DNA of 64,000 nucleotides from Vulcanimicrobiota bacterium. Its GTDB lineage: Bacteria > Vulcanimicrobiota > Xenobia > Xenobiales > JADMJV01. Of this stretch, positions 25,132-40,045 are shown piece by piece. The first letter of the stretch is position 1. Each line of letters begins with the position of its first letter. The stretch is from assembly GCA_050250895.1 (NCBI GenBank), contig JBFWNU010000001.1, positions 2,500,891 through 2,564,890 on the forward strand. The letters are read 5' to 3'. A program made the translations under genes and the position numbers. The notes beneath the pieces were generated by a model. It was not told the origin of the DNA, searched no databases, and saw only the letters and a list, made by a program, of their open reading frames with translations.

Positions 25132-28014
25132 GTGTCCAACACTCTCACCCAAGAATGGCGTGCCAAGCTGACCGACGGCAAAGCGACCTACAGCTTTGAA
25201 GAAGGCAAAGCCGATATGAAAGGCATCCTCGGCGGCAAAGGCGCCAACCTGGCCGAGATGACTCGCCTGGGCTTCCCCGTGCCCCCCGGTTTCACCATCA
25301 CCACCGAAGTTTGCAATGTTTATCAGGCCACCAGGAAGATGCCCGAGGGGCTGGCCGAAGAGATTCGCGATCGCATGAAATCGCTCGAAGAGCAGATGGG
25401 CAAGGGCTTCGGCGACAACAAGAACCCCCTGCTGGTCTCGGTTCGTTCGGGCGCCAAGTTCTCGATGCCGGGAATGATGGACACCGTTTTAAACCTGGGT
25501 CTCAACGACCAGGCCGTCGAGGGCCTGGCCAAACTCTCGGGAGATCCCCGTTTTGCTTACGACGCCTATCGTCGCTTTATTCAGATGTTCTCGGATGTGG
25601 TGATGGGCCTGCCCAAGCACGAGTTCGAGCATATCTTGCGCCACAAGAAAGAGGCCGAGGGCGTCACCGAGGACGCGAAGCTCACGCCCAAAGCACTCCA
25701 AGAGTTGGTGGCCGATTTCAAGAAGAAGTTCAAAGAAGAAGCCGGCCGCGACTTCCCCACCGATGTGCACGAGCAGCTGCTGCTGGCTGTCGAAGCGGTT
25801 TTCAAATCCTGGAACAACCCGCGCGCCATCGTCTATCGCGACAAAGAGAGAATTGCCCACGACCTGGGCACGGCCGTCAACGTCCAGTCGATGGTCTTCG
25901 GCAACATGGGTGGCGACAGCGGGACCGGCGTGGCCTTTACCCGCAACTACAACACCGGCGAGAAGAAGCCGGTGGGCGACTACCTCATCAACGCCCAGGG
26001 CGAAGATGTGGTGGCCGGTATCCGCACTCCGCTGCCGCTCGAGGCGCTCGAGAAAGAGCATCCCGAGCTGTGGAAACAGTTGCTCGACATCAGCCATAAG
26101 CTCGAGCAGCACTACGGCGATATGCAAGACATGGAGTTCACCATCGAAAAGGGACGCCTGTTCATGCTGCAGACCCGCACCGGCAAGCGCACCGCCCAGT
26201 CGGCTGTCAAGATCGCCGTAGACATGGTCGAAGAAGGTCTGATCACCGAAGAGCGGGCCGTGCTGCGGCTGGCCCCTTCGCAGCTCGACCGGTTGCTGCA
26301 CCCCTTCATTCCCGATGATGCCAAGAAGGAGGCCATCGACGCCAAGCGGATGCTGGCCAAAGGCACTGGCGCCTCCCCCGGAGCCGCCTGCGGGCAAGTG
26401 GTTTTCGAAGCTGACGACGCGGTCACGAGGGCCGGCGAAGGCAAAGCCGTCATTCTGGTGCGTCCCGAGACTACTCCCGATGACGCCCACGGCATGGCCG
26501 TGGCCAAAGGCATCCTGACCAGCACCGGCGGACCGTCCTCGCATGCCGCGCTGGTGGCCCGCGGTTGGGGCATTCCATGTATCGTCGGCTGTGAAGCTCT
26601 GCGTATCGATCTCGACGCCAAAAAGGTCACGGTCGGCTCGACCACCTTCGGCGAAGGCGATGTCATTACCATCGACGGCGGCACCGGCGAGGTGATGATG
26701 GGCGAACTGCCGCTCCACGAACCCACCGACCTCTCGCCCGAAACCAAGACGATCCTGGGTTGGGCCGACAAGTTCCGCAAACTGGGCGTGTATGCCAATG
26801 CCGATACGCCCCACGACGCCGCCCGCGCCCGCACCTTCGGGGCCGAGGGCATCGGGCTGTGCCGCACCGAGCACATGTTCATGGAGAAAGACCGCATTCC
26901 CATCGTGCAAGAGATGATCATGGTGGCCACCCAGGCCGAGCAGCGCAAGCGCCGGGTGGAAGTGCTCGAGCAAGAGATGGTCGGATTGCCTCAGGAAGGC
27001 CGCCAATATCGCGAGGCCAAAGCCCGCTATGACGAGGCCTTCGCGGGCATGGAAGGCCCCTGGAACAAGTATCGCGAGTTGCTCGACAAGCTGCTGCCCA
27101 TCCAGCGCGAGGACTTCCGCGGCATCTTGCAGTCGATGGAGGGCCTGTGGGTGATCATCCGGCTGCTCGACCCGCCGCTGCACGAGTTCTTGCCCGGGCA
27201 CTCCGAGTTGCTGGTCGACGTGACCCGCCTGCGCACCCTCAAAGAGGTTTCGCAGACCGCCTTTGACAAGGCCCTCGGCGACATCCGGCATCGCCGCGGC
27301 AAAGAGGCCACTCTCGAGAGTCTCGAAGAGCTTTTGGGCCGGGTCGAGAGCATGAAGGAGTTCAACCCCATGCTCGGCCTGCGTGTGTGCCGTCTGGGCA
27401 TCGTCTATCCCGAGATCTACAAGATGCAGGTCCGGGCCATCTTCGAGGCCGCTTGCCAGCTGAAGAAGGCCGGTATCGACGTCAAGCCCGAGATCATGAT
27501 CCCGGGCGTGGGAACACTGGCCGAGATGCAGCACACTCGCCGTCTGGTCGAGGCCGTCGGGGCCGAGGTCCAGAAAGAGAACGGAGTCGAAGTGACCCAC
27601 AAGATCGGCACCATGATCGAGTTGCCCCGCGCCACCACCGTGGCCGGCGACCTGGCCACCGCCGCCGACTTCTTCAGCTTCGGCACCAACGACCTGACCC
27701 AGACCACCTACGGCTACTCGCGCGACGATGCGGCCGGCACGTTCATGCCGGTCTATCTCGAGTCGGGTATCCTCAAGGTCGACCCTTTCACCGTGGTCGA
27801 CCGCCAGGGCGTCGGCCGCCTGATGAAGATGGCCGTCGAAGAGGGTCGTCAGACCAACGCCGACCTCGAGGTGGGCATCTGCGGTGAGCACGGCGGTGAC
27901 CCCGAGTCGGTGGAGTTCTGCCACCTGCTCGGCCTCAACTACGTCTCTTGCTCGCCCTTCCGCGTGCCCATCGCCCGCCTGGCCGCCGCGCAGGCTGCCT
28001 TGAACAACAAGTAA
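25132..28014 (+). CDS. ppdK: Pyruvate, phosphate dikinase
   Basis: GGKGANLAEM, SVRSGA..SMPGMMDT, SHAA, GIGLCRTEHMF, GICGEHGGDP; GTG start after GAGG. Confidence 0.97.
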   Translation: MSNTLTQEWRAKLTDGKATYSFEEGKADMKGILGGKGANLAEMTRLGFPVPPGFTITTEVCNVYQATRKMPEGLAEEIRDRMKSLEEQMGKGFGDNKNPLLVSVRSGAKFSMPGMMDTVLNLGLNDQAVEGLAKLSGDPRFAYDAYRRFIQMFSDVVMGLPKHEFEHILRHKKEAEGVTEDAKLTPKALQELVADFKKKFKEEAGRDFPTDVHEQLLLAVEAVFKSWNNPRAIVYRDKERIAHDLGTAVNVQSMVFGNMGGDSGTGVAFTRNYNTGEKKPVGDYLINAQGEDVVAGIRTPLPLEALEKEHPELWKQLLDISHKLEQHYGDMQDMEFTIEKGRLFMLQTRTGKRTAQSAVKIAVDMVEEGLITEERAVLRLAPSQLDRLLHPFIPDDAKKEAIDAKRMLAKGTGASPGAACGQVVFEADDAVTRAGEGKAVILVRPETTPDDAHGMAVAKGILTSTGGPSSHAALVARGWGIPCIVGCEALRIDLDAKKVTVGSTTFGEGDVITIDGGTGEVMMGELPLHEPTDLSPETKTILGWADKFRKLGVYANADTPHDAARARTFGAEGIGLCRTEHMFMEKDRIPIVQEMIMVATQAEQRKRRVEVLEQEMVGLPQEGRQYREAKARYDEAFAGMEGPWNKYRELLDKLLPIQREDFRGILQSMEGLWVIIRLLDPPLHEFLPGHSELLVDVTRLRTLKEVSQTAFDKALGDIRHRRGKEATLESLEELLGRVESMKEFNPMLGLRVCRLGIVYPEIYKMQVRAIFEAACQLKKAGIDVKPEIMIPGVGTLAEMQHTRRLVEAVGAEVQKENGVEVTHKIGTMIELPRATTVAGDLATAADFFSFGTNDLTQTTYGYSRDDAAGTFMPVYLESGILKVDPFTVVDRQGVGRLMKMAVEEGRQTNADLEVGICGEHGGDPESVEFCHLLGLNYVSCSPFRVPIARLAAAQAALNNK

Positions 28015-28035
28015 AGCTGGCTAGCCAGACCGATT

Positions 28036-28066
28036 GCGGCCCTCCTCACGGAGGGCCGCTTTCTTT
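28036..28066 (+). terminator. Rho-independent terminator
   Basis: GCGGCCCTCC-TCAC-GGAGGGCCGC followed by TTTCTTT. Confidence 0.85.
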
Positions 28067-28598
28067 AGACGGAGACGTCGACGATCGGCAGACGGGCCAG
28101 GCTCTCGTCGTCGATGTCGAAAACTCGGCGTGGTTCATCGTAGATGAAGTTGTAGGGTGAGACGAACTGCACGTGCTCGCATTTGGGATCGTATCCCACC
28201 AGCCAGTAGAAGAAGCCTTGAGCGACATCCCCACCCTCATTGACGAGGGCTTCGCACAGGATGTAGGGGTCGGTCTTTTGTTTCTTGAGATTGGCGCGCA
28301 AACGCGATTCAAGCCGCTCAAGATAGCTTTCTTGACCGGATTTCTCGTCCGCGACCTCCTCCAGCGAGATGACCAGGGCTGGAGGATAGCGCTCGCTTGA
28401 AACGAGCAACCGGGTGAGTTCATGAGAGAGCACCCGGAGGCCGGCCAGATTCTCGCTGGAGACATTGCCCCAGAGTTGAAACAGCCCCCAGTCGAAGTCG
28501 CCGGGGTGGGCCACAAACTCGCCTTCGACTCCCTCCGGAAACTGAGGGAACTGGTAGTCGCCTTCGGTGCGGTAGGGGACGAGGGCGTAGACTCTCAT
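28065..28598 (-). CDS. Hypothetical protein
   Basis: 177-aa acidic ORF downstream of the LprI-like gene. Confidence 0.6.
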   Translation of the reverse strand: MRVYALVPYRTEGDYQFPQFPEGVEGEFVAHPGDFDWGLFQLWGNVSSENLAGLRVLSHELTRLLVSSERYPPALVISLEEVADEKSGQESYLERLESRLRANLKKQKTDPYILCEALVNEGGDVAQGFFYWLVGYDPKCEHVQFVSPYNFIYDEPRRVFDIDDESLARLPIVDVSV

Positions 28599-28606
28599 GG
28601 CAGGCG

Positions 28607-28948
28607 CTAGTGCGAGACCTCTTCAAGCCACTCGCGCAGCACAGCCGTGCGGGCGCGGGTGGTGGTGGCCATGCTGGCGTAGTAGATCATCGGCGCCATG
28701 CTCCCGCCCTCATAGAGTGCCTGCCGGGCCTTGGCCTCGGCATCGCGGTACTTGATCCAGATGAGCTGAGCGTCCACCAGCTTCTCCCGCACCGAGGCTC
28801 CGAGTTGGGGCTTAAGCTCTTGCCAGACCTGGTTGAGTTCGCGGTCGGCGGCTTCGTAGTCTTGCAGAGCCCGGGCGTTGAGTTCGTGTTGGTTCTGGGC
28901 GAAGGTCGGGACGGTGAGGAGAATCAACAGGGCTAGAAGGTATCTCAT
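28607..28948 (-). CDS. LprI/DUF1311 family secreted protein
   Basis: Signal peptide; AD.ELN.VW, L..AQ..WIKYRDAE, GGSM.P. Confidence 0.85.
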   Translation of the reverse strand: MRYLLALLILLTVPTFAQNQHELNARALQDYEAADRELNQVWQELKPQLGASVREKLVDAQLIWIKYRDAEAKARQALYEGGSMAPMIYYASMATTTRARTAVLREWLEEVSH

Positions 28949-29010
28949 CGGTATTGCTTCCTCCGCCCGGCGCTACGCCCTGCCAAGCCGCCCGCTGAGC
29001 CCGGGCCTTG

Positions 29011-30150
29011 GCTCCCACGGAATCCCGGGAGCGTGCTCCCACAAAACCCGGGAGCTGGCCGCCGCCCGCCATGGCGCGCACCCCAGCCCGCCGCGGCAAC
29101 CCGCCGCTGCCGGGCCGGGCCGAGGCTGTGCTCCCACGAAATCCCGGAGCATGCTCCCACAAAACCTGGGAGCCGGTCGCCGCCCGCCGTGGCGCGCACC
29201 CCAGCCCGCCGCGGCAACCCGCTGCCGGGCCGGGGCTGTGCTCCCACGAAATCCCGGAGCATGCTCCCACAATACCCGGGAGCTGGCCGCCGCCCGCCCG
29301 CGCTCCAGCCCGCCAGGGCGCGCTCCCGCCCGCCGAGGCAACCCGCCGCTGAGGGGCCGAGGCTGTGCTCCCACGAAATCCCGGAGCATGCTCCCACAAA
29401 ACCTGGGAGCCGGTCGCCGCCCGCCACGGCGCGCACCCCAGCCCGCCGCGGCAACCCGCCGCTGCCGGGCCGGGGCTGTGCTCCCACGAAATCCCGGAGC
29501 ATGCTCCCGCAAAACCTGGGAGCCGGCCGCAACCCGTCGAGCCTGGGCCCTGGCTCCCACGGAATCCCGGAGCATGCTCCCCCAAAACCTGGGAGCCGGT
29601 CGCCGCCCGCCGGGCCTGGGCCCTGGCTCCCACGAAATCCCGGAGCATGCTCCCGCAAAACCCGGGAGCCGGCCGCCGCCCGCCCGCGCTCCAGCCCGCC
29701 ACGGCGCGCACCCCAGCCCGCCGCGGCAACCCGCCGCTGCCGGGCCGAGGCTGTGCTCCCACGAAATCCCGGAGCATGCTCCCCCAAAACCTGGGAGCCG
29801 GTCGCCGCCCGCCATGGCGCGCACCCCAGCCCGCCGCGGCAACCCGCCCGCCGGGCCGGGGCTGTGCTCCCACGAAATCCCGGAGCATGCTCCCACAAAC
29901 CTGGGAGCCGGCCGCCGCCCGCCAGGGCGCGCACTCCAGCCCGCCGCGGCAACCCGCCGTTCGCCGGCCGCCGCCCGCCACGGCGCGCTCCCGCCCGCCG
30001 CTCCGGCCGCAACCCGTCGTTCGCCGGACCGGCCGCCGCCCGCCCCGTCGCGCACTCCAGCCCGCGCGGCAACCCGCCGCTCGCCGACCGCTGCCCGCCA
30101 CGCCGCGCTCCAGCAACTGCGCCAGCCCGCCGCCGCCGCCGCACGCCTGG
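29011..30150. repeat. Degenerate tandem array of 9 palindromic cores with related GC-rich linkers
   Basis: Core GCTCCCACGAAATCCCGGAGCATGCTCCC.CAAAACCTGGGAGC starts at 29011, 29130, 29240, 29367, 29480, 29553, 29626, 29755 and 29866. Linkers share CCAGCCCGCCGCGGCAACCCG and decay to ~30150. Confidence 0.92.
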
Positions 30151-30187
30151 CCACGGCCAGCCAGCGAAACAAAATTTGAAATAGGGG

Positions 30188-30216
30188 TTGACACCGGCAA
30201 ATATCAGTCGTATACT
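30188..30216 (+). promoter_or_regulatory. Sigma70-type promoter
   Basis: TTGACA (30188-30193), 17-nt spacer, TATACT (30211-30216); AT-rich UP-like tract at 30167-30183. Confidence 0.88.
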
Positions 30217-30419
30217 CTCAACAGCAAATATTGCTAAAGCAGCGAAGAACTATGTATCTCGATAACACCAACATAATGATCGAAAGCCCGTTTACGGGCT
30301 GCTCGTCCCACGTCCCCGGCAAACCCGGCGTTATGCGGCGCGGTTGGGAACTAGGACAAACTCGATCGATGGCAGGGGTGCAAGCCTTGTAAAAATGGGC
30401 TTGAATATCGGTTCCGCCG

Positions 30420-30460
30420 AAACCCGCCACTGCCGCGACTATCGCCCTGGCGGGTTTTTT
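30420..30460 (+). terminator. Terminator/attenuator hairpin in the operon leader
   Basis: AAACCCGCCA...TGGCGGGTTTTTT, ending 22 nt before the ATG at 30483. Confidence 0.6.
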
Positions 30461-30482
30461 AATTCAACAAAGGAGAACAAAG

Positions 30483-30689
30483 ATGATGACCATTCACGTG
30501 CGTTTTGAGGGCAAGAGCTTTGATCTCGACGGCCGGAACCTGAGCCTGAACACTCAGGCCAGCGACCGCGAGATTCGCAACAGCTTGGCTCGTTACCTGG
30601 AGGTCGAGGTCGGTCGCTTCCAGGACTACGTAATCGACCGGCGTCCTAGCGGCGCTGTGGTCGTGCGACCCGAAGCCGTCTACGGCTAA
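30483..30689 (+). CDS. Putative ubiquitin-like (beta-grasp) protein with C-terminal Gly
   Basis: Strong RBS AAGGAG; 68 aa; apparent beta-beta-alpha-beta-beta pattern; ends RPEAVYG. The fold call is inference. Confidence 0.65.
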   Translation: MMTIHVRFEGKSFDLDGRNLSLNTQASDREIRNSLARYLEVEVGRFQDYVIDRRPSGAVVVRPEAVYG

Positions 30690-30810
30690 CTCCGAGCAAC
30701 CCCAACGGGTCGCTGGTTCGGTTCGCCTCCCCCTCCTGTAGCCGAACCACAGACTGACCATGCCAACCCTCGATGTGGGGTGCCCGGGTTCGCCCGGGCA
30801 CCCCGGCCCA

Positions 30811-30987
30811 AAAGTCTTATCGCTTCGCGACCCTATCTCTGAAGCTTACATACCTCTTGAAGAGCAGTTTGATCGAAAGATCCTGTAGGTTCGAATCCTA
30901 CCAACTCGACTATCGAGTTGTGGCGAAATTGGTAAACGCGACTGTTGGTTACTGCGCTTTAGTAACTTGCGCGAAGCGACATTCTTT
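30811..30987 (+). ncRNA. Circularly permuted tRNA-like RNA 1 (YrlA/Y-RNA-like)
   Basis: Order: variable arm GATC-GAAA-GATC; T-arm GTAGG-TTCGAAT-CCTAC (30885-30901); closed acceptor CAACTCG-ACTAT-CGAGTTG; Leu-like D-arm TGGCGAAATTGGTAAACGC. Outer stem 30820-29/30970-79. Confidence 0.8.
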
Positions 30988-31150
30988 GTCCCGGTCGGGC
31001 CGCGCGCCCTTACCGATGAAGCATACATACTGGTAAAAACGACTTCCAATCGTTAGTAGGTTCGAATCCTGCCACCTCCACCACATGGGGGTGTGCAACG
31101 GGCCGCAAGGCCCACTGCTTTGTGAACTCGCGCGATGGCCTGGTCGGGAC
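30988..31150 (+). ncRNA. Circularly permuted tRNA-like RNA 2 (YrlA/Y-RNA-like)
   Basis: T-arm GTAGG-TTCGAAT-CCTGC (31056-72); closed acceptor CACCTCC-ACCACAT-GGGGGTG; GGGCC-GCAA-GGCCC in the D-arm position; outer stem GTCCCG...CGGGAC. Confidence 0.75.
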
Positions 31151-31177
31151 TATTTTTGCAGAACGGAGGTGCACGAG

Positions 31178-31261
31178 ATGAGACATAACCTGGGGAACAT
31201 GTGGGGCGATCGCTCCGGCGTGCGCCCGCCCATCTTCTATCCGACCGCAGGTCGCGGTTGA
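31178..31261 (+). CDS. Putative 27-aa small ORF
   Basis: GGAGGT RBS 7 nt upstream; MRHNLGNMWGDRSGVRPPIFYPTAGRG. Confidence 0.35.
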   Translation: MRHNLGNMWGDRSGVRPPIFYPTAGRG

Positions 31262-31267
31262 GTTGAC

Positions 31268-31373
31268 CCGCCTGGTCCCGTAGGGAAGGGCGAGCAGAAT
31301 AGGGGTTCGACTCCCCCCATCCCGAGCCACCGGGGTGGTCCCGTGGGTGGCGGGTAGCACTCGTCCAGGCAGG
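31268..31373 (+). ncRNA. Circularly permuted tRNA-like RNA 3
   Basis: GGGG-TTCGACT-CCCC (31302-16); CCATCCCG-AGCCAC-CGGGGTGG; D-like CCCG-TGGGTGG-CGGG; closed by GGCGAG/CTCGTC and GCCTG/CAGGC. Confidence 0.65.
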
Positions 31374-31400
31374 CATCCAGTTCGATTTTAGGAGGCCCTC

Positions 31401-31553
31401 GTGGCGATACGACGACGCGTCGTTGCCGGGCGGCCCCTGGCTCACCGATACAATCACCAGCGTTGGACCAGCACCTGGCAGTTAACCAGGCAGCGCGAGC
31501 TCGTCTATCGTTTGGTCAGGGCCAGGCGCCGTCCGCGCCGACGCACACCATGA
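31401..31553 (+). CDS. Putative 50-aa Arg-rich small protein
   Basis: AGGAGG RBS then GTG; 16 of 50 residues are Arg. Confidence 0.4.
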   Translation: MAIRRRVVAGRPLAHRYNHQRWTSTWQLTRQRELVYRLVRARRRPRRRTP

Positions 31554-31629
31554 GAGACGGTCGCCGCTAGACGGCAGACCGTAGAGAGTTTCCGGGAACG
31601 GCCACGGCCCGCGCCGGGCAGAGTTATGA

Positions 31630-33087
<1,458 letters not shown>

Positions 33088-33214
33088 GCTGTCGTTCCGG
33101 CCGCGGTGACAGGGGCGGGAGAGCAATCTCCCGCCCCGTTCCCCGGCCGGGCGACGGTAACAACGGTCTCTTTAGAGTGCCGGCACACGGCCTTGTTTTC
33201 GTCCCTGAGTCCTT

Positions 33215-33455
33215 GGACCGGTAGCTCAGCGGTTAGAGTGCTGCACTGTTGAGGGTGACGCAGACAGGGTCTCCCGTCGCCAGACGTGCCCTTCTTCCGC
33301 CATGCGGACCGTCGCTTCTTGGGAAGTAGAACTAGCTACTACCGCAAGAAGACGCCAATCCGCCTGTCGAAAGAATTGCTACGTCTGGCTCGGTCCGACC
33401 CCGTCAGCGGCCCCCTATGCAGAAGTCGTGGGTTCGAATCCCATCCGGTTCGCCA
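33215..33455 (+). ncRNA. tRNA-Asn-like RNA with ~165-nt structured insertion in the anticodon loop
   Basis: Acceptor GGACCGG/CCGGTTC + GCCA; D-arm GCTC-AGCGGTTA-GAGT; anticodon stem CTGCA/TGCAG enclosing 172 nt; T-arm GTGGG-TTCGAAT-CCCAT. Confidence 0.85.
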
Positions 33456-33576
33456 AAGAAACACTGGAAAACAGATTGGAGGAGATAATCGGCCCGGGTC
33501 CGCGCCCGGGCCTGGTCCATTTCTCTAGAGTAGATCGGTGGCCGGCCTCGAAAGCCGGCACTCTAGGAGGTGAGAG

Positions 33577-37161
<3,585 letters not shown>

Positions 37162-37165
<4 letters not shown>

Positions 37166-37608
37166 AATCCACCTCCGTCGCGGAAGGTCGCAACGACACC
37201 GGGCAGGACCATTTCTGCTTCGACCACGGCTCTGGCGCTGGGGGAGTTCGCCGGTCCTACCAGGCCTACGCTGGTGACTCTGTACAATCCATCTTCGAGG
37301 TTGTCGTTGGCAACTCTTTCAAGGCTGACCTGATAGCTGCCTGTGGTGAGCTGTTCGGCGTAGGCGAAGGTGGTCTGCCCCTCGAGCCAGGGCGGAAAGT
37401 CATAGAGTTTGAGCATCTTCACACGAGCGTCCTCCAGGCCGGATTCGGCCAGGGTCAGGGCCTGAGCCGACTCGCGCAGATGGCGGGCGGCCTGATATTG
37501 CGAGCGTCTCGAGGCCAGGAAACCGAGGCCCACCAGCAACATGATCACTCCGATCAACAGCGCTCCGATGATCATCGAGCCTCGCTCTCGCTTCAAGGCG
37601 CCACCCAC
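37162..37608 (-). CDS. PilX-like minor pilin
   Basis: RERG|SMIIG, A..LAESGLE; paralog of 21693-22169. Confidence 0.75.
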
Positions 37609-38090
37609 TGGAAAGCCACCTGGCGCAGCGTCGTGACCTTGGTCTTCTGGACCAGAGTCACGGTGATCTCGTGGCGCTGTCCGGCGCTCGCCACGCCGAA
37701 CCCGTTCAGACCCTCGCTGAGGACCTCAGAGCCCCCGGTTTGTCGCCACAAGCGCTGCCCGTCGAAGCGATACACGACCGTCACCTGGCGGGAAGGGTCG
37801 GCCGGGTCGAACCCCACCGGGATGGGCGCCGCTGGGATAGGAAGATTGGGTGCTGGCTTGACCAGCGTCACCGTGTTGGCGGCCGGAGTCACCTGGCTGC
37901 TCTCGCTGATCTCGCGGGCCACCCGGTCGAGGACATAGCGAGCGACTTCTAGTTCGCGATCTTTGGCCGCCGAATGGCGCATCAGCTCGGCATAGCCGTT
38001 GAACATCCGGGCCGTGGCGGCCAACACCAACGAGGCCAGAGCCAGAGCCAGCATCGTCTCTAGCAGCGTAAAACCTCGCATCCCTGTCAT
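37593..38090 (-). CDS. PilW-like minor pilin
   Basis: RG|FTLLE prepilin motif. Confidence 0.85.
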   Translation of the reverse strand: MTGMRGFTLLETMLALALASLVLAATARMFNGYAELMRHSAAKDRELEVARYVLDRVAREISESSQVTPAANTVTLVKPAPNLPIPAAPIPVGFDPADPSRQVTVVYRFDGQRLWRQTGGSEVLSEGLNGFGVASAGQRHEITVTLVQKTKVTTLRQVAFQWVAP

Positions 38091-38108
38091 GCTAGCAGAC
38101 TCCTGCTC

Positions 38109-38852
38109 TCACGGCAATGTAATGGGCGGTGTAGTGGCTTCCACCGGTTGTCCGGCGTAGAGCGCACGAGCCGTGACCTGAACGGTGTTGCTTGCCGACA
38201 GTGGTAGGCCGGTGACGGGCAGAGCCACCAGGCGGGCCGCGCTACCCATTCGATCGTTGGGAGTAATGGTTGCGGTCGCCACCGTCCCCGGGTCGAGTTC
38301 CCAGCGAAACGAGACATCGTCGATGGGATTGCCTCCGGCGTCCAGCAGTTGGGCGGTCAGGTCGATTCCCGGCGCACTATAGCTGGGGACGGCCGGGGTG
38401 ATGACGAGGGTCGGCGTTGGACGGGTGGGTTCGGCCACCAGTCCCTCGACTTCCACGGCCTGGGCCGGGTCGACGCCGGGCCAGGTGACACGCACCCGGG
38501 CCAGCCAGGCCGAGTTGGTCAACAGTCGAGGGTCGCTCTTGGTGCTTTCGAGTTGAGTGCTGGGGGCATAGAGGGCCTGGGCCACCACGGTGGTGGTGGC
38601 CGTGAACGAACCCACCTGGTAAGTGGCGGCCGAGTAGGCCGTCAGGCCAGCCGCGAAGGTCGGATAGTCCAGCGCCGCTGTTCGGATATTGGCCATGACG
38701 TCGCGAGCCACGCCGGCCGCCTGGCTGCGTTGCTCGATGGTGTTGAAGTAGGCTAGAGAGCGGTGGAAGATGGCGGCCAGGATGACCATGGAGGCGATCA
38801 GGATCAGCATACCCGCGACCGTCTCCATCAAGCTCAAACCCCGCCGTTGCAC
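38109..38852 (-). CDS. PilV-like minor pilin with C-terminal Ig-like domain
   Basis: RRG|LSLME prepilin motif. Confidence 0.8.
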   Translation of the reverse strand: MQRRGLSLMETVAGMLILIASMVILAAIFHRSLAYFNTIEQRSQAAGVARDVMANIRTAALDYPTFAAGLTAYSAATYQVGSFTATTTVVAQALYAPSTQLESTKSDPRLLTNSAWLARVRVTWPGVDPAQAVEVEGLVAEPTRPTPTLVITPAVPSYSAPGIDLTAQLLDAGGNPIDDVSFRWELDPGTVATATITPNDRMGSAARLVALPVTGLPLSASNTVQVTARALYAGQPVEATTPPITLP

Positions 38853-38932
38853 CTCTCCATGTTCGCATGTCAGAGCAGACTCCCTGGCTTTCGTGGTCAG
38901 AATTTAACAGGGTCGGGCCAGACCGCTGGCAA

Positions 38933-40045
38933 TTAGCTCAGCTGAGTGAGTAAACTTTGCATCGGCATCAGCAGGCCGATCACGCAAAAGGCCACCAGCA
39001 CGGCCATGGCGCTCAGCACCAACGGCTCGAGGGCGGCGGTAAGCACGTCGATGCGGTGTTGGGCTTCTTGATGGTAGAGATCGGCCAGGAACGGTAGCAC
39101 CTGAGGCAGCCGGCCGGTCTCTTCGCCCACGGCGAAGAGGCTGGCCACTACGCCAGGAAAAACCTCAGGAAAGCCCTCTACCATCTGGTGCAGCGAGTTA
39201 CCTTGCTCGAGCTCGCTCACCAGATGTTTGCCAACCTCTTCGAGGATGGGATCGCCTGAGGCCGAGCAAGCCAGGCGCAGAGCGTTGCGCATCTCGAGCC
39301 CGACCATCAGCAAGGTGCCCAGCGTCGAGGTGAACCCGTGCAGGGCCAGGCTGATGTAGAGTGGGCCGATGAGCGGCAGTTGGCGATAAACCTGAGCCAA
39401 CCGCTTGCGTCCCTCCTCGGTGTCGCGAATCTTGTTAAAGAGCAGGGCCAGGTGCCCGAGCACTCCAATCAGCACCAACCAGGCCAGCGGGCGGGTAGCC
39501 AGATCCGAGGCCCAGAGCAAGGTGCGGGTCGTCCAGTGCAAGGGGGCGTCGAAAGCGGTGACCGCCTCGAGCAATCGCGGCAGCAGCAGGGTGCAGATCC
39601 CCATGGTGCCCACCAGCGCGAACACCAGCACCAGCAGGGGATAAGTCATGGCCGCCTTGACCTTTTGCACGAGTTCCCGACGTTGCTCGAGCCAGCGAGC
39701 CGCCTGATCGAGGGTTTCTACCAGCATGCCACTGTTTTCTCCCGATAGCACCAGGGCCAGAACCGGGCGTGGAAAGAGTTCGGGAAAGTCGCTCAGGGCT
39801 CGAGAAAAGGTTTGGCCCGAGCGGACCGAGTCGGCCACATCCAGAGCTACCTCGGCGAAGACTGGATCATCGGTCTGATAGCCCAGCACGTCCACTGCCT
39901 GCAACAGGGGCACTCCGTTGGCCAGCATGGTGGTGGTATTGCGAAGAAAGAGCACCGGAGAGAGTGCCTGGGTTCGGACCTTCTTGACGTGGGCAAGTCG
40001 CCGGCGAGCCATAACCGGATCTTCGCCCTCGGTGACCAGCTTCAT
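38933..40045 (-). CDS. Type II secretion system F / PilC platform protein
   Basis: NGVPLLQA, SGENSGML, AMTYP, VGEETGRL, ALEP motifs. Confidence 0.9.
   Translation of the reverse strand: MKLVTEGEDPVMARRRLAHVKKVRTQALSPVLFLRNTTTMLANGVPLLQAVDVLGYQTDDPVFAEVALDVADSVRSGQTFSRALSDFPELFPRPVLALVLSGENSGMLVETLDQAARWLEQRRELVQKVKAAMTYPLLVLVFALVGTMGICTLLLPRLLEAVTAFDAPLHWTTRTLLWASDLATRPLAWLVLIGVLGHLALLFNKIRDTEEGRKRLAQVYRQLPLIGPLYISLALHGFTSTLGTLLMVGLEMRNALRLACSASGDPILEEVGKHLVSELEQGNSLHQMVEGFPEVFPGVVASLFAVGEETGRLPQVLPFLADLYHQEAQHRIDVLTAALEPLVLSAMAVLVAFCVIGLLMPMQSLLTQLS

Follow-up and report, generated by a model that had tools for sequence, protein, structure and literature searches.

Bacterial Y RNAs mimic tRNA in permuted form, and transfer-messenger RNA (tmRNA) combines an acceptor/T-arm module with an "anticodon arm" that is a long irregular helix, P2. 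As described by Chen et al. (2014, RNA 20:1715), YrlA has the permuted order V-T-closed acceptor hairpin-D, both termini of the RNA belong to the Ro-binding stem, and the motif GNCGAAN0-1G lies near the 5' end of this stem; in M. smegmatis, RNase P cuts YrlA, which acquires CCA while bound to Rsr. In the laboratory design known as the tRNA scaffold, a structured RNA takes the place of the anticodon loop within a tRNA body, and the inserted RNA is described as correctly processed and protected from RNases (Ponchon and Dardel, 2007; PMC10424219). In this work we describe an element found in a 64-kb stretch of DNA from a Vulcanimicrobiota bacterium (contig JBFWNU010000001.1), hereafter the window, whose positions are used for all coordinates of the element. 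The element, at 33215-33455 of the plus strand, is a tRNA-shaped RNA gene in which a 165-nucleotide (nt) hairpin, or rod, interrupts the anticodon loop, and it sits between two Ro60-fold genes of the same strand, as expected for the neighbourhood of a Y RNA. Its existence and the features described below are confirmed here, and on sequence grounds we consider it a putative variant of the Y-RNA-type tRNA mimics of bacteria.

When compared with YrlA as described in the above work, the element shares the position of its gene beside a Ro60-type gene on the same strand, the mimicry of the D and T arms with their tertiary contacts, and a long stem in the place of the anticodon arm. It differs in being unpermuted, with the standard tRNA order in one piece and an open acceptor end, and in having a true acceptor of 7 base pairs (bp), a discriminator, an encoded CCA and a rod closed by a loop; in addition, its neighbour proteins are not recognised by Pfam TROVE and its GNCGAAN0-1G match is not significant. 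The M. smegmatis YrlA, once cut by RNase P and provided with CCA, has the same open-acceptor topology, in two pieces. The engineered tRNA scaffold, with which the element agrees in build, is a laboratory design, whereas the element would be a natural gene, known here from its sequence. Literature searches at the title and abstract level returned no report of such an element, nor of the Ro60-like protein family together with its RNA module, and the supplementary YrlA loci of Chen et al. (2014) may include members.

A complete tRNA body interrupted at the anticodon loop

The sequence-only reading had claimed a complete tRNA body, and this was upheld by the Rfam tRNA model (RF00005), which aligns from end to end (model positions 1-71 of 71) with 33215-33452, and by the reading of all stems. 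The bit score of this match, 44.5, exceeds the gathering score of 29, and its E-value in a search of the window is 3.3e-6. The cloverleaf has a 7-bp acceptor, D, anticodon and T stems and the conserved tertiary nucleotides (Table 1): the acceptor GGACCGG/CCGGUUC contains a single G-U pair, the positions U8, A14, G15:C48, G18G19, G26:A44, G46 and G53:C61 are all present, and the body finishes with the T loop UUCGAAU, the discriminator G and an encoded CCA, an end found in 48 of the 64 tRNA calls of the genome. The anticodon is GUU (Asn), followed by an atypical G37. No resident tRNA was copied in this body, the best match being 58/73.

The tRNA search programs dealt with the element very differently. 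ARAGORN in standard mode called no tRNA in the window and missed it, and in intron mode returned a tRNA-Asn(gtt) of 76 nt plus a 165-nt intron at 37/38; this mode is noisy, with 40 long-intron calls in the 9.5-Mb genome, and is too unspecific to serve as a census. A stricter scan of the whole genome, requiring a T arm, 7/7 acceptor pairs, 4/4 D-stem pairs and a long insert, gave 11 long-insert rows including the element; one of the others is a merger of two adjacent tRNAs and the rest, judged by eye, are without tRNA-like D-arm sequence. The whole-genome Rfam tRNA search listed normal-length matches only and missed the element itself, and therefore it is unusable for counting long-insert tRNAs.

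The rod in place of the anticodon loop

In the predicted fold, the insert continues from the 5-bp anticodon stem and stacks on it, forming an imperfect rod of about 80 bp. The folding energies are -112.6 kcal/mol for the whole element (z -5.95) and -84.3 kcal/mol for the plus-strand insert alone (z -8.2), values that 0/200 shuffles equalled in both cases. The four helices proposed earlier (33279-87/33381-89, GCGGA/UCCGC, CUUCUUG/CAAGAAG and AGUAG/CUACU) are all part of this fold. A further pairing, CUGUUGA with UCAGCGG, which had been suggested to hide the anticodon, is possible (seven pairs, two of them wobble), but it is missing from both the minimum-free-energy and the cloverleaf-constrained fold. 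Alignment of the two rod arms gave 62 matches, 17 mismatches and 4 gaps; most of the mismatches (13/17) are of the transversion type, and these chiefly oppose two pyrimidines.

The 3' strand of the rod, which leads into the T arm, contains GTCGAAAG, which had been put forward as the Rsr-binding motif. The literal fit to GNCGAAN0-1G is correct, but it lends no support to the argument for Rsr binding, the pattern being common by chance: the N1 form occurs at 80 places in the window, where 56 would be expected, and therefore one match in a 165-nt rod is unremarkable. None of the window matches falls within 30800-31450, where the upstream Y-like RNAs lie. Searches for further copies of the insert in the genome found the self match only, by which a miniature inverted-repeat transposable element or other dispersed palindromic repeat was ruled out, and a short-word BLAST of the rod with its flanks against the genome revealed neither a target nor a copy.

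Ro60-fold proteins beside the element

The neighbours that the sequence-only reading had called vWA proteins proved to be Ro60-fold proteins. The AlphaFold model of paralogue 1 (pLDDT 82) was compared with known structures by Foldseek, and the top 12 matches, which extend over the full length of the model, were all Ro60, Rsr or TROVE proteins (E 2e-12 to 3e-9, TM 0.58-0.70); by its model, paralogue 1 has the Ro60 fold, with a TROVE ring and a vWA domain. Paralogue 2 is regarded as Ro60-like through its sequence identity to paralogue 1 (Table 1). The Ro60 fold of the flanking proteins makes a Y-RNA reading of the element reasonable. Pfam gave only a weak VWA_2 match on both paralogues, and Pfam TROVE matched nothing in the genome, which consequently has no Pfam-TROVE Rsr; the same profile detects the rings in control genomes. 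Sequence and profile searches of the PDB found nothing relevant. The genome carries four paralogues of this family, and the DxSxS motif of the vWA domain is invariant in the family alignment.

Members of the family (about 477 amino acids, aa) are widely distributed and about 60% identical to one another; most come from cyanobacteria, others from metagenome-assembled genomes titled Armatimonadota and Acidobacteriota, and in the sources they are labelled only "hypothetical" or "vWA".

A conserved Y-like RNA module of the Ro60-like loci

Two RNAs encoded upstream of paralogue 1 are permuted, YrlA-type tRNA-like elements on a long basal stem, in agreement with the earlier reading of the element as the topological inverse of the upstream RNAs; in the first of them the permuted domain has the order T arm, closed acceptor hairpin, D arm. 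Across the family, a conserved module was recognised that consists of helix P1, CCCUAAC, helix P2, UUACAUAC, a variable apical part and ACUUGCGCG, which closes P1. Covariation supports P1 and P2, with double changes in 12 of 15 pairs and 90.5% of the cells paired; 0/500 shuffles reached the observed values and slid controls paired at 28-53%. When 78 loci were searched with the model R1, built from 42 minimal copies of the module, 247 matches reached E<=0.001; without exception they lie on the strand of the gene, and from a reading of the match table they fall in 72/78 loci. About 42 of these 247 matches are training sequences and the E-values are rough. The module forms arrays of up to about 8 copies upstream of the Ro60-like genes, always in the orientation of the gene. 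When 81 loci were scanned for permuted tRNA-like elements, 55 were found in this orientation and 0 in the opposite one. Rfam gave no match for the module, and the literature searches did not return it.

The apical part of the module may be a plain hairpin, a permuted tRNA-like domain or a tRNA-like domain of standard order, the acceptor of which begins with a conserved UACAUAC (Rfam tRNA, 41-58 bits). In six cyanobacterial loci, an outer tRNA body, with an invariant 7-bp acceptor, a D hairpin and a T arm, encloses a Y module and an inner tRNA-like domain (6/6 aligned; inner domain 41-57 bits with Rfam tRNA). These composites have the same outer-tRNA-plus-insert build as the element, and differ from it in that the insert contains the Y module there and a plain rod here. 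With the module family as a whole, the element shares the operon, the strand and the theme of a tRNA-like domain, whereas its rod is without P1, CCCUAAC, P2 and UUACAUAC ... ACUUGCGCG.

Several minor features of these RNAs were also recorded. A third permuted T-arm plus acceptor hairpin lies at window positions 31290-31350, with a counterpart in the sister genome (L083:1215-1270), the loop containing GCCAC or ACCAC. By analogy with M. smegmatis YrlA, such ACCA-type acceptor loops suggest an opening of the RNase P/CCA type. Upstream RNA 2 gives a partial match to the Rfam permuted tmRNA (26.8 bits, below threshold), and one of the three distant R1 matches listed in Table 1 contains an Rfam tRNA-like match of 42.7 bits.

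Table 1. Features of the element, of its locus and of related loci. Coordinates are window positions except where a locus (L) or another sequence (C) is named.
Feature	Coordinates	Strand	Basis or remark
Acceptor stem, 5' strand (GGACCGG)	33215..33221	+	7/7 pairs with 33445-33451; Rfam tRNA alignment
D arm (GCUC / AGCGGUUA / GAGU), with A14, G15, G18G19, A21	33224..33239	+	
Anticodon stem, 5' strand (CUGCA)	33241..33245	+	pairs with 33418-33422
Anticodon loop, 5' part: C32 U33 G34 U35 U36 G37	33246..33251	+	ARAGORN intron mode
165-nt insert, imperfect hairpin (rod)	33252..33416	+	fold; apical loop about 33330-33335
GTCGAAAG, literal GNCGAAN0-1G match in the 3' strand of the rod, leading into the T arm	33366..33373	+	not significant
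A38, anticodon stem 3' strand (UGCAG), variable loop AAGUC (A44, G46, C48)	33417..33427	+	
T arm GUGGG-UUCGAAU-CCCAU	33428..33444	+	
Acceptor 3' strand CCGGUUC, discriminator G, encoded CCA	33445..33455	+	
Sigma-70-like promoter, strong, 11/12 positions	30188..30216	+	heads the locus; only promoter-like site in 30100-34000
Upstream Y-like RNA 1	30820..30990	+	basal stem, GAAGCUUACAUAC, permuted tRNA-like domain, then ACUUGCGCG
Upstream Y-like RNA 2, permuted T arm, acceptor hairpin, ACCA in loop	31004..31133	+	R1 27.1 bits
Ro60-like paralogue 1, 476 aa, helical ring and vWA with DxSxS	31657..33087	+	AlphaFold, Foldseek
12-nt arm, perfect complement of 33554-33565	33173..33184	+	pairing in centroid fold
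Partner 12-nt arm, directly before GGAGG of the 119-aa open reading frame	33554..33565	+	
119-aa open reading frame, signal-peptide-like N terminus	33577..33936	+	stop overlaps start of paralogue 2
Ro60-like paralogue 2, 469 aa	33936..35345	+	61% identical to paralogue 1
Cyanobacterial "tRNA within tRNA" RNAs	L062:2927-3138, L063:1366-1578, L065:1417-1628		
Cyanobacterial "tRNA within tRNA" RNAs	L067:2385-2594, L071:1151-1363, L081:1729-1940		
Distant R1 match	C1:3292870-3292945	-	far from the four Ro60-like paralogues
Distant R1 match	C4:33172-33248	-	far from the four Ro60-like paralogues
Distant R1 match	C1:1894734-1894863	+	far from the four Ro60-like paralogues

Occurrence in metagenomes and in RNA libraries

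Metagenome runs of sludge and wastewater, which come from 10 studies, contain near-identical DNA (18 rows), including one DNA contig of 2894 nt, about 4% diverged, that carries the Y-like RNAs, paralogue 1 and the element in this order and reaches 33522. Metatranscriptome contigs cover the element in two libraries from two studies (X11 and X12). Record 14 of X11 spans 33229-33435 without gaps, crossing both junctions of the insert with a single difference in 207 positions, and record 21 of X12 spans 33121-33299, beginning in the spacer and reaching the rod. In none of the 4 runs was there a joint that bridges the insert. The neighbouring gene differs in X11 at 44/983 and 19/356 positions, which suggests that the element is much more conserved than the adjoining coding sequence, if the X11 contigs represent one strain. 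The RNA-library contigs cannot show RNA ends, and their lack of cover at 30770-31683 and beyond 33457 was not counted as evidence. Taken together, the element is a real tRNA mimic that is probably expressed.

Decoding tRNA, intron or tmRNA

The intron-mode call of a 76-nt tRNA-Asn(GUU), with the insert at the canonical site 37/38, is what a functional tRNA-Asn gene would give if the intron were removed to produce a decoding tRNA; the discriminator G and GUU are also the same as in the resident tRNA-Asn, and genes for RtcB-family ligases are present elsewhere in the genome. Nevertheless, a decoding tRNA-Asn is unlikely because of G37, of the lack of a known splicing route and of a normal tRNA-Asn elsewhere, and we give this explanation very little credence. 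If the insert were removed at 37/38, G37 would come to follow U36; among the 16 tRNA calls of the genome that have U36, A37 comes next in 14, and the two G37 exceptions are both without a CCA end. The normal tRNA-Asn(GUU) is encoded on another contig (76.1 bits). As for the splicing route, the insert is a single hairpin rather than a group I core, and Rfam at the gathering score found no group I intron, small ribozyme or tmRNA on the element within the window; the same held at E<=1 over 26000-40000, a search of imperfect sensitivity for long-insert alignments, since it did not relist the tRNA match. ARAGORN -m found no tmRNA, in line with the earlier expectation that no known intron or tmRNA model would match. 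The predicted fold contains no bulge-helix-bulge, including the 3-4-3 type whose absence had already been pointed out, and the tRNA-splicing endonuclease domain PF01974 has 0 matches in the genome (99.6% complete). The RNA-library contigs show the unspliced form only, with no joint, although contigs cannot prove absence.

The normal 7-nt anticodon loop is interrupted by 165 nt that can be placed at 37/38, as in intron-bearing tRNA genes (bacterial group I introns; archaeal and eukaryal 37/38 introns), from which the element differs in having neither a group I match nor a bulge-helix-bulge, in the absence of an endonuclease gene and in a spliced product with G37. With tmRNA, the standard form of which is encoded elsewhere in this genome, the element shares an acceptor/T-arm module joined to a long irregular helix, and it differs by its full D arm and in having no pseudoknots and no tag reading frame.

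What the element may be

We tentatively favour, with a little less than even confidence, the reading that the element is a non-decoding, tRNA-shaped non-coding RNA that is transcribed with the operon, whose full, L-shaped body of tRNA-Asn type provides ends and stability and whose rod is retained. The observations behind it are the structure of the element, the Ro60 fold of its neighbour, the family-wide association with RNAs and the unspliced form in RNA libraries; the processing of M. smegmatis YrlA and the protection of RNAs inserted into engineered tRNA scaffolds also speak for it. The promoter at 30188 would drive transcription of the RNA as part of the operon, RNase P would form the 5' end at 33215, and the 3' end at 33455 would result from trimming back to the encoded CCA; the tRNA body would act as a tRNA-mimicking module and as a handle for processing and stability, and the rod would be kept without splicing. 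A function as a Ro partner is plausible, and a contact with the Ro-like proteins may be envisaged; since the rod is without the conserved module of the family, binding of paralogue 2 would need another surface or the 3' end. From the Y-like reading made earlier, the body, the rod and the Ro60-fold context stand; the argument from the Rsr motif is unsupported, the genome has no Pfam-TROVE Rsr and the rod has no match to the R1 module.

Several results weigh against this non-decoding RNA. When the entire window was searched with R1 and the filters switched off, both upstream RNAs were detected (27.1 and 15.4 bits) but no match at E<=10 fell on 33215-33455, and the exact family motifs CCCUAAC, UUACAUAC and ACUUGCGCG are not in the element. 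With no R1 match and GNCGAAN0-1G common by chance, the rod sequence offers no positive evidence of a Ro-type binding site; a resemblance to a degenerate Y module (ACGUGCCCUU ... GAAUUGCUACGU), suspected by eye, was unsupported by R1. Three strong R1 matches (52-60 bits) lie elsewhere in the genome, and therefore paralogue 2 need not depend on the RNA of the element. Conservation is also lacking. A DNA search of 16 family genomes found no homologue (a single 30-nt match in G006 lies within a coding open reading frame and is due to chance), Rfam found no long-insert tRNA in 20 order-level loci, a scan for such tRNAs found none in 29 metagenome loci, and the exact 22-nt pattern of the 3' end had 0 matches in metagenome contigs; in the metagenome scan anchored on the paralogue 2 protein, relatives did not exceed 64% identity. 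Synteny with the sister genome breaks off directly after the orthologue of paralogue 1 (72%) and gives way to unrelated sequence; there, the orthologue of paralogue 2 (69%) is found upstream in inverted orientation, with no element of this type. The sense strand of the rod has four A.C mismatches and one G.U, the A.C becoming G.U in the antisense, and the antisense insert folds better, at -103.4 kcal/mol (z -10.3); this mismatch pattern, with five informative sites only, does not favour selection on a sense RNA. Finally, RNA-library contigs may contain DNA and may come from different strains; mixed strains are evident in X2, so that the higher conservation of the element is only suggestive.

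A bolder version of the non-decoding RNA would be a natural "tRNA scaffold", that is, a one-piece, unpermuted Y RNA paired with a divergent Ro60 paralogue, stable, processed by RNase P, ending in CCA and bearing a long duplex as its anticodon arm, which may be recognised, modified or even charged through GUU and the discriminator G; it may thread its 3' end into the Ro ring or present the rod. We consider this version rather unlikely.

More generally, a correctly ended tRNA body in one piece plus a long duplex, encoded in an operon of two divergent Ro60-like genes, would show that the logic of Y RNAs can be built in unpermuted topology, and such an RNA would offer a simple handle on the enzymes of tRNA maturation, modification and charging that act on RNAs of this type (RNase P, the CCA enzyme, modification enzymes and synthetases). 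In importance, the element may be outweighed by the system around it, comprising a widespread Ro60-fold family missed by Pfam TROVE, a conserved 68-aa partner open reading frame (ORF) and covarying RNA arrays.

The lack of relatives is also what would be expected of a relic, in which a captured or duplicated tRNA gene received a palindromic insertion in its anticodon loop and is now carried passively in the operon transcript with no function. The element is a singleton at a lineage-specific junction missing from the sister genome, its G37 follows U36, the ordinary tRNA gene arrays frequent in related loci are a possible source, and the rod is near to a DNA palindrome, with its 62 matched positions, one G.U in sense and a better fold in antisense. 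On the other hand, all stems of the body and its tertiary positions are intact, the body copies no resident tRNA, the insert has no second copy, the transversion-type mismatches of the arms are unlike the simple decay of a palindrome, and divergence in the metagenome contigs is low when compared to the neighbouring gene. A relic is therefore an improbable explanation in our view, while still one to be taken seriously. The better antisense fold would also suit a functional antisense hairpin to which the tRNA-like body is incidental; however, the counts behind the mismatch bias are small (4 vs 1), the intact body is strand-specific and the minus strand of 30100-34000 yielded no promoter-like site, and we hold out hardly any prospect for this explanation.

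The position of the element between two cistrons would also fit a cis-acting signal, whereby the tRNA-like fold, perhaps with the duplex as an RNase III site, leads to cleavage of the transcript between the Ro-like cistrons and controls the 119-aa ORF and paralogue 2 at the level of stability or translation. The element is intercistronic and on the same strand, and between 30216 and 34000 no promoter or terminator consensus was found except a weak site at 31100. The element is bracketed by a perfect 12-nt inverted repeat (33173-84/33554-65) that ends by the downstream ribosome-binding site, record 21 of X12 reads from the spacer into the element, and the 119-aa ORF, which overlaps the start of paralogue 2, is coding-like, with gene-like GC contents of 0.58/0.45/0.75 at the three codon positions. 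Against this, a plain tRNA-like fold would suffice for such a role and the 165-nt rod would be left unexplained unless RNase III is involved, and the arrangement is not conserved in the 20 order-level loci or in the sister genome. Such a signal seems to us distinctly unlikely, though like the relic it is to be taken seriously, and the non-decoding RNA described above is preferred, on the tentative terms already given.

Other features of the locus and of related loci

No homologue of the 119-aa ORF was found in the related loci searched or elsewhere in the genome. The promoter that heads the locus is followed by a leader of about 250 nt (window positions 30217-30465), with a terminator-like hairpin and a T run before the 68-aa ORF; its counterpart in the sister genome shares ATCGATGGCAG and the terminator, and the leader may be a riboswitch or a small RNA. 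The 68-aa ORF (window positions 30483-30689) lies upstream of the Y-like RNAs and has a strong ribosome-binding site. It has no Pfam or NCBIfam match, and tblastn found relatives in 71 of the related loci, with identities down to about 52% among the 12 best matches.

In the sister genome, the orthologue of paralogue 2 (G001:C259:582-1994) contains one in-frame TGA, and before it, at L083:100-380 (-), there are 3-4 tandem repeats of about 40 nt, each ending in GGUUCAGGU(N)GACUUG. In five related loci (L041, L043, L045, L124 and L125), from 3 to about 17 ordinary-looking tRNA genes lie directly upstream of the Y-like RNAs and the Ro60-like gene, and downstream of one of the cyanobacterial Ro60-like loci there is a CRISPR direct repeat (L062:7524-7547; Rfam CRISPR-DR28, 36.8 bits).

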